This document shows positions 7,814 through 26,280 of a stretch of 32,000 nt of DNA, piece after piece. The stretch covers positions 60,001-92,000 of the forward strand of contig NC_000917.1 in the NCBI RefSeq assembly GCF_000008665.1. The letters are read 5' to 3'. The position numbers and the translations under genes are program-made. The DNA is from Archaeoglobus fulgidus DSM 4304 (GTDB taxonomy: Archaea > Halobacteriota > Archaeoglobi > Archaeoglobales > Archaeoglobaceae). The notes under the pieces were generated by a model, which saw only the letters and a list, made by a program, of their open reading frames with translations, was not told where the DNA came from and did not search any database. Within the stretch, counting starts at the first letter, position 1. Each line of letters opens with the position of its first letter.

Positions 7814-8873
7814 AATTCACCACCTCCTTTAAAACTTTTTCTTCATAACTTCCGAACTTTATCCGATCTTTACCAATGTCATTTCTTAGATGGAGTTTGA
7901 TGTATCTCTCATAATTGGACAAACTGGGATTTGTGATGAATTCGGCTAAAGCAGATGGTAGGTCTTCATAGCCTTTTCTGAAAGCGGTCCACTCAAAAAT
8001 GTCTTTCCATTTGTTCAACACCTTTATTGCCTCATTGGATTCGGCTATCTGGTGTAATAAGTCAAGGGGGAAAATGCCACCTGTTAACGGCTTCCACTGG
8101 TTCCCTGTTTTGGTCATTACACCATATATCAGAGAACCGAACTTTGGTGCAAATTTACCACCTTCTTCAACTCTTAGTTCTTCTAAAACCAAATTAACAG
8201 CTATTTGAGCGAGTGATGGAAACCACCCTGCTCTATGTAAGCCTTTTACCGAGTCATCGATTCTCTTTCTGATCTCACCAATCAGGTGTAATATTCTTGT
8301 TCTGGTAGGGCTTGGAATGGCAAAAATCATGCCCATGTTCGAGAACTTTCGTATGGTTGCATTGATATGCCCCAATACTGAGAGAGTAAAGTCACTTATC
8401 GACACTTTTACAGGCGACCCTTCTGAATATTGCTTTTTTAACAGTATTTCGTCCCTAATACCCTTCGTTGCTGCCAACTCCATTGGCTGATATAGAGTCT
8501 CCTTCCCGCTGCCTATGTAAACGGGTGATTTAAGCTCTTTTAAACCGTCCAATATGTTTCGGATATCTTCTACATTTCCTAAGAACTCTACAACCTTCTT
8601 TTTCGTCTTTTCTCTTTGTCCACTTCCAATTGTTATAAACGTCCAGTCCCAAGCTTGATCGTCACCAAAAAATTTATGAATCTGGTCGATTCGCTCAAAG
8701 TTCAATTCTCTTTGTGATTCTATTAAATATAATCCACCCATGTCGCTTACAACTGCGTCTCCGCTCAGTGTATGCACGATAACCCCCACTCCATAGGCCC
8801 TTGATACATCAAAAAACTCCCAGCCAGTTTTAGGCAGAAAATATCGATTCATAACTTGCACCTCCAGTAGCAA
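7800..8873 (-). CDS. Cas8-position (large subunit) protein, unusually short
   Basis: 357-aa ORF between cas3 and the small subunit gene. The likely start is M8 (MNRYFLPKTGWEFFD, ATG at 8852). It overlaps the cas3 3-prime end. The assignment is by position only. Confidence 0.45.
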   Translation of the reverse strand: MLLEVQVMNRYFLPKTGWEFFDVSRAYGVGVIVHTLSGDAVVSDMGGLYLIESQRELNFERIDQIHKFFGDDQAWDWTFITIGSGQREKTKKKVVEFLGNVEDIRNILDGLKELKSPVYIGSGKETLYQPMELAATKGIRDEILLKKQYSEGSPVKVSISDFTLSVLGHINATIRKFSNMGMIFAIPSPTRTRILHLIGEIRKRIDDSVKGLHRAGWFPSLAQIAVNLVLEELRVEEGGKFAPKFGSLIYGVMTKTGNQWKPLTGGIFPLDLLHQIAESNEAIKVLNKWKDIFEWTAFRKGYEDLPSALAEFITNPSLSNYERYIKLHLRNDIGKDRIKFGSYEEKVLKEVVNFVGV

Positions 8874-11109
8874 GTCTGTCTGAAATTCTTATCAATTTAG
8901 AAAGCAAACCATAAAGTCTGTAAGCCTCATTCTCATCAGCTACATTTAAGTACGTAAAATCAAGCCTATTGGCTGAATCATGGACTTTAATCAACTCTTT
9001 CGGAACGCTCCAGACCTCCTCAATGAATTTGTTGAATTCTGGAATTAGACGGTATTCTTTGTATTCTCTCGCCCACGGTCCGTGGTGATGAGCAATTGCC
9101 AAATAGAATGCTTTGAATACACCTGCGTCATCAAATAAACTTTCTAAATAAGGTTGCAAGGCTTTTGCAGAAACAGTTGCGTGTGGGGGCAATTTTCTGA
9201 CGTCACTTTCATCTGAATGGGCTAAAGGTATTTTGCCATTCCATCCTACTTTCTCCTGCCAATTTATGTTTAATTTGCCCAGATCATGTAGTGCCGTTAT
9301 GCATTTAATAAGATTGACAAACTCATTATACTCGTACCCGAAGTAATCAGCGAAATTTTTGATAACATAGTAATAACGAGGAATTAGGTAGCAGTCGAGT
9401 ACCCATAGAGAGTTCTTTGCGTGTTCAACCCAACTCTCTTTCTCAAGTTTATAATCAGCTTGGCTTTTAATACCTTTAAGTTTCAGTTTATCGGGCTCAA
9501 AGGATTTGATTGCATTAGGAGCAGATTTGCCAAGCACAAGCCCGACTTCTGGAGAATAGCAAGCACCACTCAGAACATAAAGTTGAAATGGGGTTACATC
9601 TTCTTTACTTTTTACAAGTACTAGCGTGTATTTGCTTTCATAATCTCCAATTACCGGATTTTCTTCTAGTTTGTATGTTTTTATGCCTAACTCCGCAAGC
9701 TTCTCAACTTTACCACTTAAAACTCGCGCATCAACACGTATTCTCGGCAGTGCCAAGATTTCCTCTGGTTCTAGAGTGTCAGGATTTTCATGAAGTGTAA
9801 TATCACACGAAAAAATTTCTCTAACGTTCTGCTCCACCTTTGCCTTACTACCTTCATAAACAGCTCTTGCAAGTTCCCCAAGTCTCTGGTAGAAAAACTT
9901 CGAATCCATGAAAAACTCAAAATGACTTGAAAGTACATTGTTGACGAGTTGGAGTTCAGTTTGCCAATCTAAAGGAAAATCCCCTTTACTCCTGATTTCA
10001 GTTATTGTACTCTCGATTAGCTCTTTAAGATATGGAGCATATGGATTGCTACTGTCTCTGGCGAGCCCAAAAACGTGAAATTCTCCATTGCCACCCCACC
10101 TTGCACATCTCCCAGCCCTTTGTATCAGTGCATCAATTGGAGCAACTTCTGACAGAATTATTGGAGATGAGATATCCATTCCTACTTCTATTACTTGTGT
10201 AGAGATAAATATACACTCGCCTTTACCATTCTTACCGAATACTTTTTCAAAGGATTTCTCCTTTTCTGCCCGATCTTTTTCTAGATATCTGGAATGCAGG
10301 AGAAAAATGGGATAGTCTATTTTCTTCCTTAGATCGAGGTACAGGTTTTGTGCTCGTTCGACAGTGTTAACAACTACAACAAGTTTTCTGCAGTTCTCAG
10401 CCTCCTTTAGAACAGTATCTGCCGTTAACATTTCATCAGGTCTATTTATAAGTTCAACTTTTCGATTTCTCCTCGATTTGATTTCTGATTCATTCTTCAC
10501 GTCCATAATCTCGACTTTACCTCCATTTTTCTCTATTCTTTCCTTGACACGTTCAATGAAAACATCTGGTAGAGTAGCAGACATTATGATTGAAGGAAGG
10601 CCAAGTTTTGCAGATTGCATAGCGATTGCTGCAGCAGTTTGAAGACCTTTTTCTGGGTCAAGAGTGTGTACTTCATCAAAAACGGTCAGAGCTGATGCAA
10701 TACCACCTACAAAAATGTTTCCCCACCTTTTTGGCATGCTTAAGGGAACGCTCAAATATGCCCCAGCAGTCTGATCGATTGTTGTGACAATAATATCCTC
10801 CTCGAAAAGGCTACTTGTTGCCTTTTTGCCATGATGAATTGCTACTCTTAGTTTTTTGAATGAAGCATACTTAATAGCACGTTCGCCAATACTTTCCACT
10901 AAAGTTCTTGTCGGAAGCGAATAAATCAACTGAGGTGGTAAGTAGTCATTGAGGCCATAAATAAAAGGAATTAAAGATGCTTCAGTTTTTCCGGCACCGG
11001 TCGGCGCTCTAATAATCAGGGATTTTCCCTCCAGTAAATTATCCATTGCTTCCTTTTGATATTCGTATGGACTATGGCCTGTTAATTTGCGAAAGGCTTT
11101 AATCACCAT
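8830..11109 (-). CDS. cas3: Cas3 fusion protein: N-terminal SF2 helicase plus C-terminal HD nuclease
   Basis: 759-aa ORF. Helicase motifs present are APTGAGKT (I), FDEVH (II), MSATLP (III) and QRAGRCAR (VI). The last roughly 200 aa (nt about 8833-9432) carry HD-domain residues: WVEHAKN, TALHDLGK, LAHSD and LAIAHHHGPW. Confidence 0.9.
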   Translation of the reverse strand: MVIKAFRKLTGHSPYEYQKEAMDNLLEGKSLIIRAPTGAGKTEASLIPFIYGLNDYLPPQLIYSLPTRTLVESIGERAIKYASFKKLRVAIHHGKKATSSLFEEDIIVTTIDQTAGAYLSVPLSMPKRWGNIFVGGIASALTVFDEVHTLDPEKGLQTAAAIAMQSAKLGLPSIIMSATLPDVFIERVKERIEKNGGKVEIMDVKNESEIKSRRNRKVELINRPDEMLTADTVLKEAENCRKLVVVVNTVERAQNLYLDLRKKIDYPIFLLHSRYLEKDRAEKEKSFEKVFGKNGKGECIFISTQVIEVGMDISSPIILSEVAPIDALIQRAGRCARWGGNGEFHVFGLARDSSNPYAPYLKELIESTITEIRSKGDFPLDWQTELQLVNNVLSSHFEFFMDSKFFYQRLGELARAVYEGSKAKVEQNVREIFSCDITLHENPDTLEPEEILALPRIRVDARVLSGKVEKLAELGIKTYKLEENPVIGDYESKYTLVLVKSKEDVTPFQLYVLSGACYSPEVGLVLGKSAPNAIKSFEPDKLKLKGIKSQADYKLEKESWVEHAKNSLWVLDCYLIPRYYYVIKNFADYFGYEYNEFVNLIKCITALHDLGKLNINWQEKVGWNGKIPLAHSDESDVRKLPPHATVSAKALQPYLESLFDDAGVFKAFYLAIAHHHGPWAREYKEYRLIPEFNKFIEEVWSVPKELIKVHDSANRLDFTYLNVADENEAYRLYGLLSKLIRISDRLATGGASYESIFSA

Positions 11110-11269
11110 AAATCCCCCTGTAAATTCCCTCCATCAAATTAACAAACCCCAAAATCCCTGCATCAATAAACCAGTTACCGGTAAACCTAAGCTCATTAGA
11201 TTCGCCATATCCTGAATTGTCACATTCATTTTCTTTTCCGATGAAATCGTCAAGCGTAACTACCTTCAT
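11099..11269 (-). CDS. Unlisted 56-aa ORF wedged between cas6 and cas3
   Basis: Hand translation gives MKVVTLDDFIGKENECDNSGYGESNELRFTGNWFIDAGILGFVNLMEGIYRGIYGD. Its ATG overlaps the cas6 TGA (ATGA at 11266-11269), and its TAA lies 11 nt inside cas3. It fills the whole cas6-cas3 gap. Confidence 0.5.
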   Translation of the reverse strand: MKVVTLDDFIGKENECDNSGYGESNELRFTGNWFIDAGILGFVNLMEGIYRGIYGD

Positions 11270-11991
11270 ACCACCTTCACCATCCCAAACCCCATGCTGT
11301 TCTTAGAGCCAAAACCCGCCTTATAACCCACGTCAAGCAGCTCAGGACTACCTTCAGCCTTAAAAACCATTTCAACACATCTGTGAAAGGTGTCCTTAAG
11401 CCTGATGCGCTTCGCTTTAACGTTGAGAGGTTTCATGTGGAAGTCGAGGTTTTCCGGAGCGCTTTTGTAATATAGAACGTACTTCTTCACAAGATTCTGC
11501 AAGATAACCTCGTAAAACTTACTGTCTTTCGGATACAAATCAAAAATCCTCCTTCTGCCGTTCTCTCCGACTGAGGTAGATGCATATATGGGGCTGAGAG
11601 TTACGAACTTCTCCCTTCCCTTTACCTCCCTTTCTGGAAGAACAGACACCTCTGAGACGATGAAGTCAACACCGCAGATTCTTATCTCGGGCTTTGAGAG
11701 CAAACCCTCAACAAGACTGGCGGCAACCTCATTTCTGAGAGTGGAGAAGAAAAAGTAAGCCTCCTCGCAATCCGACACCATCTTTTCTCCCTCTATCCTG
11801 AACTTCCTCTTTGGAATGAAGAGCTTGCTGAAGGTGAAGAATTTCGGGACATCTGGCTTGTGCAGCTCAATGGAAAGCGAGGGGTCAGCCCTTTCAATAG
11901 CCCTGTAAATCGCCGAAGCGAGGTGATAAGAGTGGTTCAAGTCAATCTCGAAGCTGTCTGCAGGTGACAGGAGGGAGATTTTCAAACGCAT
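11266..11991 (-). CDS. cas6: Cas6 crRNA-processing endoribonuclease
   Basis: 241-aa ORF with the glycine-rich C-terminal RAMP loop GYKAGFGSKNSMGFGMVKVV that is typical of Cas6. It is the first gene of the operon. Confidence 0.8.
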   Translation of the reverse strand: MRLKISLLSPADSFEIDLNHSYHLASAIYRAIERADPSLSIELHKPDVPKFFTFSKLFIPKRKFRIEGEKMVSDCEEAYFFFSTLRNEVAASLVEGLLSKPEIRICGVDFIVSEVSVLPEREVKGREKFVTLSPIYASTSVGENGRRRIFDLYPKDSKFYEVILQNLVKKYVLYYKSAPENLDFHMKPLNVKAKRIRLKDTFHRCVEMVFKAEGSPELLDVGYKAGFGSKNSMGFGMVKVV

Positions 11992-12579: not shown

Positions 12580-12780
12580 ATGTCCTATGCAAGAGGTGAA
12601 AAAATTGATGGGGTAATCTTCCTAGTGGAAGAAACAGATGACGGCTACACTGCAAGAGCTCTTGGCCACTCAATTTTCACCCAGGCTGGCTCTCTTGAGG
12701 AACTGAAAGAAATGGTTAAAGATGCTGTAGAGTGTCATTTTGAGGAAGGAGAAAGGCCAAAATTATCAGACTTCACATAG
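12580..12780 (+). CDS. hicB: HicB-like (UPF0150) antitoxin-type protein
   Basis: 66-aa ORF ...GVIFLVEETDDGYTARALGHSIFTQAGSLEELKEMVKDAVECHFEEG. This matches the HicB N-terminal fold pattern (dGgy.a....l.g..tqG.t.eEa....keai). No C-terminal DNA-binding domain is present. Confidence 0.7.
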   Translation: MSYARGEKIDGVIFLVEETDDGYTARALGHSIFTQAGSLEELKEMVKDAVECHFEEGERPKLSDFT

Positions 12781-12802
12781 TGAGGCAAGAGGTCTTAACC
12801 CT

Positions 12803-13038
12803 ATGAAACTTCCCAGAGATATTGCGGCGAAGAACTCGCCAAGTTACTGAGAAAGTACGGCTATGAAGTTACCGGCAGTCATATGAGACTCACAACCCAT
12901 CGGGGAGGAGAACACCACATAACGATTCCAAGACAGGGATCTTTGAAACCTGGAACTCTTAACTCAATTTTGAAGGATGTCGCAGAACACCTTGGAGTTG
13001 ATAAAAGAGAGCTAATAGAGAAGCTTTTTGGAAGGTGA
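12803..13038 (+). pseudogene. hicA: HicA/YcfA-like toxin gene with a 1-nt frameshift near 12826-12832
   Basis: The ATG at 12803 gives MKLPRDIAAKNSPSY-stop. Shifting frame after DIA gives EELAKLLRKYGYEVTGSHMRLTTHRGGEHHITIPRQGSLKPGTLNSILKDVAEHLGVDKRELIEKLFGR, ending at TGA 13036-13038. The span is 236 nt, which is not a multiple of 3. The GSH...H...iP pattern is typical of HicA. Confidence 0.7.
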
Positions 13039-13267: not shown

Positions 13268-13342
13268 TGGGCCCGCGGGGGTTCGAACCCCGGACCTCTC
13301 GCTTATCAGGCGAGCGCTCTAACCAGGCTGAGCCACGGGCCC
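13268..13342 (-). tRNA. tRNA-Ile (anticodon GAU)
   Basis: The reverse complement folds as GGGCCCG-TG-GCTC-AGCCTGGTTA-GAGC-G-CTCGC-CTGATAA-GCGAG-AGGTC-CGGGG-TTCGAAC-CCCCG-CGGGCCC-A. All four stems form and the anticodon loop is C-T-GAT-A-A. A TATA-like TTAATAAA lies 25-32 nt upstream (13367-13374). Confidence 0.95.
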
Positions 13343-20953: not shown

Positions 20954-21022
20954 ACAGGGATTGGGCAGAGGCAGACCGGAAGCAGATGAACCTAATCTCT
21001 TCCAAAAGCTAATAACAAAAAA

Positions 21023-21143
21023 GCCGACGGTTCCCGCAGTTCCCGTGCCCTCTCGGAACACAGTACTGTGCGGGACGGAACGGGGCTTAACTTCCGGGTT
21101 CGGAATGAGTCCGGGTGTTTCCCCCGTCCTATGACCGTCGGCA
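21023..21143 (-). rRNA. 5S ribosomal RNA (stand-alone copy)
   Basis: The reverse complement is TGCCGACGGTCATAGGACGGGGGAAACACCCGGACTCATTCCGAACCCGGAAGTTAAGCCCCGTTCCGTCCCGCACAGTACTGTGTTCCGAGAGGGCACGGGAACTGCGGGAACCGTCGGC (121 nt). It has the 5S hallmark CCGAAC...GAAGTTAAGC and terminal helix GCCGACGG/CCGTCGGC. T6 follows it (21017-21022), and a TATA-like TTAAATAA lies 20-27 nt upstream (21163-21170). Confidence 0.9.
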
Positions 21144-21732: not shown

Positions 21733-21805
21733 AGCCCCGTGGGGTAGCGGTCAATCCTGCCGGACTCTGGATCCGGCGACGCCGGTTCGAATCCGGCCGG
21801 GGCTA
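21733..21805 (+). tRNA. tRNA-Gln (anticodon CUG)
   Basis: AGCCCCG-TG-GGGT-AGCGGTCAA-TCCT-G-CCGGA-CTCTGGA-TCCGG-CGAC-GCCGG-TTCGAAT-CCGGC-CGGGGCT-A. The acceptor, anticodon and T stems pair perfectly, and the loop C-T-CTG-G-A gives anticodon CTG. Confidence 0.9.
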
Positions 21806-26041: not shown

Positions 26042-26280
26042 GGGAGTGGCGGTAGTAAGCCCCCTTCTGTTCCGGCGGCATTAGACTGAGCCGCTTACGC
26101 GTTGCACCCGGCGGGGAGGAGGCCGTTTCATCCGGAGCGGGTGACCTCATCCTTGCGGAATCATCGCATTTCCCCGCACCGGTCTCGTTTCTGTTCCTCC
26201 TCCGCCCCTTCTCAGGGGCCTTCCGCCACAGCGGGTGGGGGGACTTTCCTCCTTTCGGTCAGCCGCCCACCGCCGCTCCC
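26042..26280 (-). ncRNA. rnpB: RNase P RNA (compact archaeal form)
   Basis: The reverse complement starts GGGAGCGGCGGTGGGCGGCTGACCGAAAGGAGGAAAGTCCCCCC (the universally conserved GGAAAGUCC element). It ends ...CGGAACAGAAGGGGGCTTACTACCGCCACTCCC (ACAGAA...GGCUUA element). The 5-prime and 3-prime ends pair as a P1 helix (GGGAGCGGCGGUGG with CUACCGCCACUCCC). TATA TTTTTAATAG lies 22-31 nt upstream (26302-26311) and T6 lies just downstream. Confidence 0.85.

Follow-up and report, generated by a model that had tools for sequence, protein, structure and literature searches.

The 32,000-nucleotide (nt) stretch of Archaeoglobus fulgidus DSM 4304 analysed here, referred to as the window, carries on its minus strand an operon of CRISPR-associated (cas) genes in which an open reading frame (ORF) of 56 codons plus a stop, ORF56 (11099..11269), lies between cas6 and cas3. 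By its sequence and homology, ORF56 is what is left of the 5′ end of a type I-B cas8b gene, and it is probably a recombination scar that most likely relays translation passively from cas6 to cas3. An I-B cas8b of the family described by PADLOC model PDLC01542 would have left its first ~50 codons joined to cas6, while a type I-A cassette (cas3a-cas8a-cas11a-cas7-cas5a) would have replaced the I-B effector genes behind it. On this reading, ORF56 is neither a subunit of the I-A complex nor a lost part of its Cas8a.

ORF56 Is a Fragment of Cas8b

The ORF exists exactly as the initial annotation of this DNA had claimed. Its ATG start shares 4 nt with the cas6 stop as ATGA (11266-11269), its TAA stop lies 11 nt within cas3, and it fills the 156-nt gap between both genes. 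This is the geometry of a bridging ORF, whose start overlaps the upstream stop and whose stop overlaps the downstream start; in the related operon L045, the overlap reads GTGA. The further claim that annotation misses this ORF was only partly right, as the exact 56-amino-acid (aa) product, MKVVTLDDFIGKENECDNSGYGESNELRFTGNWFIDAGILGFVNLMEGIYRGIYGD, is found among the gene calls of public collections on at least 23 contigs, including A. fulgidus DSM 8774, CP006577.1.

Three parts can be distinguished in the product, all on the minus strand. Codons 1-28 (11186..11269), which include the ATG of the overlap, encode a variable N-terminal leader that is hypervariable among full-length and short homologues alike. 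Codons 29-47 (11129..11185) encode FTGNWFIDAGILGFVNLME, the conserved N-terminal helix motif of Cas8b. Codons 48-56 and the stop (11099..11128) form a degraded tail, GIYRGIYGD, which, as seen in the codon table of 40 loci and in the junction comparison, departs from the family consensus EVYGWDL through a 1-nt deletion and the loss of E48, G52, and W53. The decay of this tail created the Shine-Dalgarno-like run AGGGGGAT, located directly before the cas3 ATG (11107-11109).

The homology to Cas8b is found at two levels. Residues 24-50 of ORF56 match positions 3-29 of the 574 positions of PDLC01542 (E 2.2e-12), and residues 2-50 are 63–69% identical to the N-termini of full-length Cas8b proteins from Archaeoglobaceae, two of which (from loci L024 and L009) match the same profile over its whole length (E 1e-192 and 1e-176, respectively). 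With this profile match and these identities, ORF56 is, judging from its sequence, no chance ORF. The likeness of FTGNWFIDAGILGFVNL to a Cas8 N-terminus, which the initial annotation had noted tentatively, proved correct: one Cas8b family is characterized by just this helix at its N-terminus. At 56 aa, against the 474–709 aa of the family members, ORF56 is a Cas8b fragment and not a functional large subunit. The Cas8b family assignments were resolved by PADLOC; Pfam and NCBIfam scans of ORF56, of the adjacent 357-aa protein, and of full-length Cas8b gave as their sole signal a sub-threshold match to Cst1/TIGR01908 for L039. The PDLC01542 family may correspond to the MTH1090-like proteins of Makarova et al. 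2006 (PMC1462988).

The motif belongs to a widespread family of large proteins. A scan with a back-translated pattern for GNWFIDAGILGF, using one representative genome per species, retrieved 40 loci, in ~30 of which the motif opens a full-length protein of 510–685 aa; these ~30 full-length cas8b genes adjoin cas6, and their products start with the FTGNWFIDAGILGFVNLME motif. The carriers include archaea (Archaeoglobaceae, Thermococcus, Thermoplasmatota, several DPANN lineages, Hadarchaeota, and Methanosarcinales) as well as bacteria (Saccharibacteria, Minisyncoccia, Spirochaetales, and Acidobacteria). A search seeded with full-length Cas8b returned more than 270 relatives, every one of them named "hypothetical", among them proteins of cultured Thermococcus, Palaeococcus, Methanothermobacter, and Thermodesulfobacterium. 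An exhaustive hidden Markov model (HMM) search of 1.84 billion representatives yielded 127 matches, ~70 of them full length, and the motif is N-terminal in all the full-length matches and in almost all of the 127. The first homology search, which returned only proteins of up to 94 aa, had suggested a family of mini-proteins. This was rejected as an artefact of the word index and of contig-truncated or frameshifted genes (P0003, one of the short homologues, is frameshifted, and P0019 presumably ends in adapter-derived sequence); by both the DNA pattern scan and the exhaustive HMM search, most motif carriers are full length. P0241, with a C-terminal motif, was set aside because it looks like a chimeric assembly.

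In an alignment of 91 Cas8b sequences, drawn from an unbiased set seeded with a full-length member and not with the motif, the motif is the most conserved block, with G32, N33, W34, D37, G39, G42, and F43 invariant; their equivalents in ORF56 are G31, N32, W33, D36, G38, G41, and F42. An AlphaFold2 (AF2) model of full-length Cas8b, with a predicted local distance difference test (pLDDT) score of 83, presents the motif as a helix at residues 34-51 (pLDDT 87–97), preceded by disordered residues 1-24 (pLDDT about 35). Foldseek gave no significant match for this model, so that the position of the helix within a Cascade is not readable from a solved structure, and sequence searches of the Protein Data Bank with profiles of the Cas8a family, the Cas8b family, and the stub found nothing.

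The third-codon positions of the motif use all synonymous codons across the 40 loci, which indicates that the constraint acts on the protein and not on the DNA or RNA. A regulatory RNA or a recombination site was rejected as the cause of the conservation on the same grounds. A CreTA-like RNA toxin-antitoxin, which would be a non-coding RNA pair with a degenerate repeat (psi-R), is unlikely in view of the protein-level constraint and the free synonymous variation; the window has no CRISPR array with which a psi-repeat could be compared. An Rfam scan of the ORF56 region found no element.

Chimeric Structure of the Locus and Its Junctions

The cas6 gene of the window (241 aa; 11266..11991, minus strand; TIGR01877, E 2e-52; Pfam Cas6_I-A and Cas6_C) is 52–56% identical to the cas6 genes of Archaeoglobaceae I-B loci, and shares its best PADLOC model (Cas6, PDLC01372) with the cas6 of the I-B locus L024. 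On the other side of ORF56, BLAST at E 1e-4 returns nothing for cas8a, cas11a, cas7, and cas5 in the Archaeoglobaceae I-B loci, and cas3 shows only distant similarity to the cas3 of those loci. The locus is, on the basis of these gene comparisons, chimeric, with a cas6 and a stub that resemble those of I-B loci followed by a cassette of type I-A.

Relatives of the I-A operon were gathered through Cas8a homologues and a metagenome scan, and cas6, the motif, and cas3 were mapped in each. Absence from orthologous operons had been named in advance as a finding that would speak against ORF56, and the mini-ORF was indeed not found in 11 of the 14 orthologous I-A operons with a visible junction: L046 (A. 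sulfaticallidus), L047/L049 (Methermicoccus), L050-L055, L058, L061, and L066, where cas6 overlaps or abuts cas3. Several of these operons are closer to the window than L045, such as L046, with 86% identity in Cas3 and 89% in Cas8a. ORF56 is not a conserved subunit of this I-A system.

The junctions themselves form a series. A stub with an identical junction occurs only in the window and in L045, where ...Y G W D L is followed by the cas3 codons (ATG/GGA) GTG ATT AAA GCC. L084, whose Cas8a is 31% identical to that of the window, has a 34-aa stub that a 110-nt spacer separates from cas3. Between L052 and the I-B locus L040, the 3′ end of cas6 and the spacer (L052:640-760) are nearly identical up to the start codon of cas8b, after which an I-A cas3 follows in L052, and L058 shows the same switch at the cas8b start codon when compared with L009 (L058:3640-3760); such near-identity indicates very recent cassette swaps. 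In L072 (about 290-345), ~16 cas8b codons encoding MPRSESVAVEVGGEET, which matches the variable leader of a Hydrothermarchaeota-type Cas8b (P0004/L037), are fused in frame to the N-terminus of cas3, and the motif is absent. The cas8b codons retained at the junctions thus number 0-2, ~16, or ~50. Read together, these junctions show that the I-A cassette has repeatedly taken the place of I-B effector genes, the breakpoints falling within the opening codons of cas8b.

Other insertions are seen at the same place. In L047 (4953-5744) and L045 (4907-5750), cas6 and cas3 are separated by an inserted HEPN-MNT (nucleotidyltransferase) pair. In Methermicoccus (L047/L049), the pair is followed by a duplicated 41–43-aa remnant of the Cas6 C-terminus that overlaps the cas3 start, and in L045 by the Cas8b stub.

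A Putative Bridge between cas6 and cas3

Like ORF56, the full-length cas8b genes of the Archaeoglobaceae I-B loci L007, L021, L024, L028, and L030 overlap cas6 by 4 nt, and L024 is a bona fide I-B locus in which PADLOC recognizes Cas6, Cas8b, Cas7b, and Cas5b in this order. The stub keeps the start and the ATGA overlap that normally couple full-length cas8b to cas6. Ribosomes leaving cas6 are predicted to translate the stub, to terminate beside the ATG of cas3, and to re-initiate there, a relay that would restore the tight coupling between cas6 and cas3 reached in the orthologues by direct overlap. We infer a translated bridge from the fact that the stub retains its start and the ATGA and ends at the cas3 start, together with the direct overlap through which the orthologues are coupled.

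Several points weigh against this explanation. The motif of the stub shows no amino-acid change between the window and L045, which would be unexpected for a purely passive scar, and short stubs in which the motif is intact are also found ahead of three other Cas8b families and of a distant I-A cassette. Moreover, both the translation of ORF56 and its role as a bridge are predictions drawn from the arrangement of the genes.

A programmed frameshift fusing the stub to Cas3 was also considered and set aside; the frame of cas3 contains a stop codon 9 codons before the ATG, and no evidence points to a slippery site.

Functional Peptide, Inert Fragment, or Split cas8

The same cas8b origin is compatible with a peptide that is itself functional, a free-standing micro-protein docking, for example, onto Cas6 or another conserved partner, which would be kept together with cas6 while the rest of the effector module is exchanged. 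This possibility is unlikely, albeit far from negligible, and it is mainly argued from the conservation of the motif, which spans archaea and bacteria as the most conserved block of Cas8b, and from the way in which the motif changes. Between the window and L045, the 19 motif codons contain 10 nucleotide differences and 0 amino-acid differences. The proportion of synonymous differences (pS) is 0.81 in these codons, against 0.40–0.79 in cas6, cas3, cas8a, cas11a, cas7, and cas5 (0.60 in cas3), and the ratio of the nonsynonymous proportion to it (pN/pS) is about 0.03, below that of every cas gene of the operon (0.12–0.35). When 10 substitutions were placed at random 200,000 times in a simulation, the peptide was never kept (P<5e-6), and other pairs that share a junction have also changed only or mostly synonymously (L001/L033, P=5e-5; L016/L082, P=1e-3). 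The search for a coding signature in the substitutions, proposed by the initial annotation, therefore had a positive outcome. In addition, stand-alone stubs with an intact motif recur ahead of the Cas8b families PDLC01507 (L001, L033), PDLC01589 (L016, L082), and PDLC01582 (L036), as well as ahead of Cas8a (window, L045, L084), and every stub ahead of the three other Cas8b families matches the N-terminus of PDLC01542. Wherever the upstream sequence is visible, which excludes L084 and L082, cas6 lies 5′ of the stub, either directly (window, L016), with inserted genes in between (L045, L001, L033, L011), or with a small ORF in between (L036). However, the stub is absent from the 11 orthologous I-A operons mentioned above, some of them closer to the window than L045, and the motif is missing from other scars, in which 0-2 or 16 codons are left. 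In some short homologues, the motif itself is truncated or carries mutations at sites where the full-length proteins never vary, and the searches find only stubs that keep the motif, which introduces an ascertainment bias. An internal Shine-Dalgarno-like sequence, GAGGAGGT, which encodes EEV just after the motif, may favour breakpoints at that point. Furthermore, the selection signal may predate the truncation if recombination created or renewed the junctions, the motif could be renewed through exchange with full-length genes by recombination, and any partner is hypothetical. The suggestion of the initial annotation that ORF56 might be a new micro-subunit or regulator is thus left unproven, with the coding pattern of its substitutions in its favour and its absence from most orthologous operons against it. 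A broader and still more tentative idea is that the ~20-residue helix FTGNWFIDAGILGFVNLME is an autonomous functional unit that would work both as part of Cas8b and as an independent micro-protein heading otherwise unrelated I-A and I-B effector operons; it might be a Cas6-docking or assembly peptide travelling with cas6 during module shuffling. If so, ORF56 would be an expressed and selected micro-subunit rather than debris.

At the other extreme, ORF56 would be an inert pseudogene fragment, untranslated or without consequence, and cas3 would start independently from its own AGGGGGAT. The decayed tail and the lack of the stub in most orthologues are in line with this, as is the untranslated 110-nt spacer between stub and cas3 in L084, according to which coupling is not obligatory. 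It is nevertheless improbable, for the frame is open and the start and the overlap are intact in the window and in L045 despite saturated synonymous divergence, and coupling seems to be conserved in the cassette, given the direct overlap of cas6 and cas3 in the 11 orthologues. The initial annotation had put another explanation first, in which ORF56 is the detached N-terminus of the short Cas8 encoded downstream; this would amount to a split gene with cas3 inserted between both parts. Although the peptide is Cas8-derived, and the start of Cas8a, KTGWEFFDVSRAYGVGVIV, modelled as helix 12-30, bears a loose similarity to it, this reading is already refuted. The mechanical cas8a ORF (357 aa) starts at 8873, 7 codons before the probable MNRYF start, and from there the large subunit of 350 aa (7800..8852, minus strand; PADLOC Cas8a PDLC01513, E 3e-169) covers positions 1-327 of the 327 positions of its profile. 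All 30 of the Cas8a homologues found have a length of about 350 aa, and the AF2 model of Cas8a (pLDDT 85) has as its top Foldseek match the 333-aa chain C of 7TR6 (E 3e-8, probability 1.00, template modelling score about 0.5), which is taken to be the Cas8a of a type I-A Cascade; the next matches are chains of a type I-B Cascade and of a type I-G effector. An hhalign comparison of the Cas8a and Cas8b families revealed no homology (probability 0.3%), and ORF56 matches the Cas8b model and not the Cas8a model. The 350-aa "short Cas8" is therefore a complete Cas8a that lacks nothing and has an N-terminus of its own, with which the earlier reason for expecting a detached N-terminus disappears; nor does ORF56 co-occur with it in 11 of the 14 visible junctions. 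A small-subunit role finds no support either, as ORF56 has no match to Cas11 profiles and that role is filled by the gene at 7451-7813 (E 3e-57).

The start of Cas8a is itself conserved. Within residues 1-30 (window 8790-8852), which contain KTGWEFFDVSRAYGVGVIV, K8, G10, D15, Y20, and G21 are invariant in 25 homologues. The loose resemblance of this element to the TGNWFIDAGILGFVNL helix of Cas8b may reflect a shared feature of large subunits.

Two of the loci with stubs show further peculiarities. In L082 (about 250-320), an ORF ending in YFTLTGNPFVDGGG and a stop lies immediately upstream of the 34-aa stub, and looks like a remnant of a second, different Cas8-type N-terminal motif in tandem with it. 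In L083 (3117-9826), the genes after cas6 are called as many short ORFs, including a 38-aa stub and fragments matching DevR, Cas5d, and others, which corresponds either to a decaying I-B operon or to a low-quality assembly.

Comparison with Known Systems and Implications

Compared with the full-length Cas8b proteins of PDLC01542, ORF56 agrees in its position directly after cas6, in the ATGA overlap, and in the order of a variable leader and the FTGNWFIDAGILGFVNLME helix. However, it holds only ~5% of the protein, and the continuation EVYGWDL is frameshifted. The context of an I-B operon (cas6-cas8b-cas7b-cas5b) is accordingly preserved only in its upstream half, with cas6 and the ATGA, whereas downstream the remaining part of cas8b, cas7b, and cas5b are replaced by a type I-A cas3a followed by cas8a.

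The Pyrococcus furiosus type I-A module (7TR6) has the same Cas8a, Cas11a, Cas7, and Cas5a components as the window, and is a canonical I-A system without a counterpart of ORF56. In P. furiosus, Cas3′ and Cas3″ are split, while the Cas3 of the window is a single helicase-HD fusion that is encoded first in the cassette.

ORF56 also resembles the ORFs of prokaryotic operons that function by termination and re-initiation, with the ATGA upstream and a stop within 11 nt of the downstream start. The likeness is one of geometry only, since ORF56 is the relic of a displaced gene and not a dedicated leader. Finally, small products derived from part of a large-subunit gene are known from the internally translated Cas11 of cas8 genes (10.1101/2020.04.18.045682), including Cas11b in Haloferax (PMC11899642). 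Unlike ORF56, which is the N-terminal end split off by truncation of the gene, these internal Cas11 products are C-terminal, arise when translation starts in frame inside the gene, and serve as the small subunit, for which a separate cas11a is encoded here.

Both the family from which the ORF56 fragment derives, Cas8b, and the kind of system that contains it are known. As a scar, it documents the swapping of effector modules between types I-B and I-A behind a shared cas6, with breakpoints that cluster at the 5′ end of cas8b. Such module-swap scars are a useful, if unsurprising, illustration of CRISPR-Cas modularity that helps to understand how these modules recombine, and for annotation they mean that a short ORF labelled "hypothetical" behind cas6 may turn out to be a cas8b stub. 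Only the near-invariant helix and its recurrent stand-alone copies might lead to something new, as a helix maintained across two domains, which when alone changes only synonymously, offers a lead to the role of the Cas8b N-terminus. A peptide that functions independently would represent a small Cas component of a new kind; otherwise, the finding is an ordinary one.

The Type I-A Cassette and Its Surroundings

The genes downstream of ORF56 constitute, as judged from their profile matches, a complete type I-A cassette of Cas3a, Cas8a, Cas11a, Cas7, and Cas5a, all encoded on the minus strand. The cas3 gene (8830..11109), of the Cas3a type, encodes 759 aa with a helicase and a C-terminal HD domain (TIGR01587, TIGR01596; PADLOC Cas3a1, E 1e-250). 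Besides cas8a, described above, the cassette comprises cas11a for the 120-aa small subunit (7451..7813; PADLOC Cas11a PDLC01488), a cas7 of the DevR/Csa2 type for a protein of 317 aa (6497..7450; Pfam DevR, E 5e-76; TIGR01875), and cas5a for a protein of 228 aa (5799..6485; TIGR02593, TIGR01874; PADLOC Cas5a PDLC01390). The cassette is tightly coupled throughout, with cas8a and cas11a overlapping by 14 nt, and the 3′ end of cas3 overlapping the mechanical cas8a ORF by 44 nt, or by 23 nt when counted from the probable MNRYF start.

Within the 32-kb window, the I-A cassette stands alone, without a CRISPR array, cas1, cas2, or cas4. In L046, cas4-cas1-cas2 are located directly upstream of cas6, and in L045, cas2-cas1-cas4 are found on the opposite strand ~2 kb downstream of cas5, past a PIN/MazE pair. 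Rfam identified an archaeal RNase P RNA (26044-26278), a 5S rRNA (21022-21142), and two tRNAs (13268-13342 and 21733-21805) in the window, all of them unrelated to the operon.

Toxin-antitoxin pairs lie on both sides of the cas operon. Just downstream of cas5a (5075-5715, minus strand) are a MazE/AbrB-type antitoxin and a PIN toxin (Pfam E 5e-12 and 3e-22, respectively), while upstream of cas6 (12580-13038, plus strand) a HicA-like ORF of 51 aa (sub-threshold in Pfam) lies beside a 66-aa ORF without a Pfam match. Genes for PIN-domain proteins follow cas5 in L045 and L046, too.

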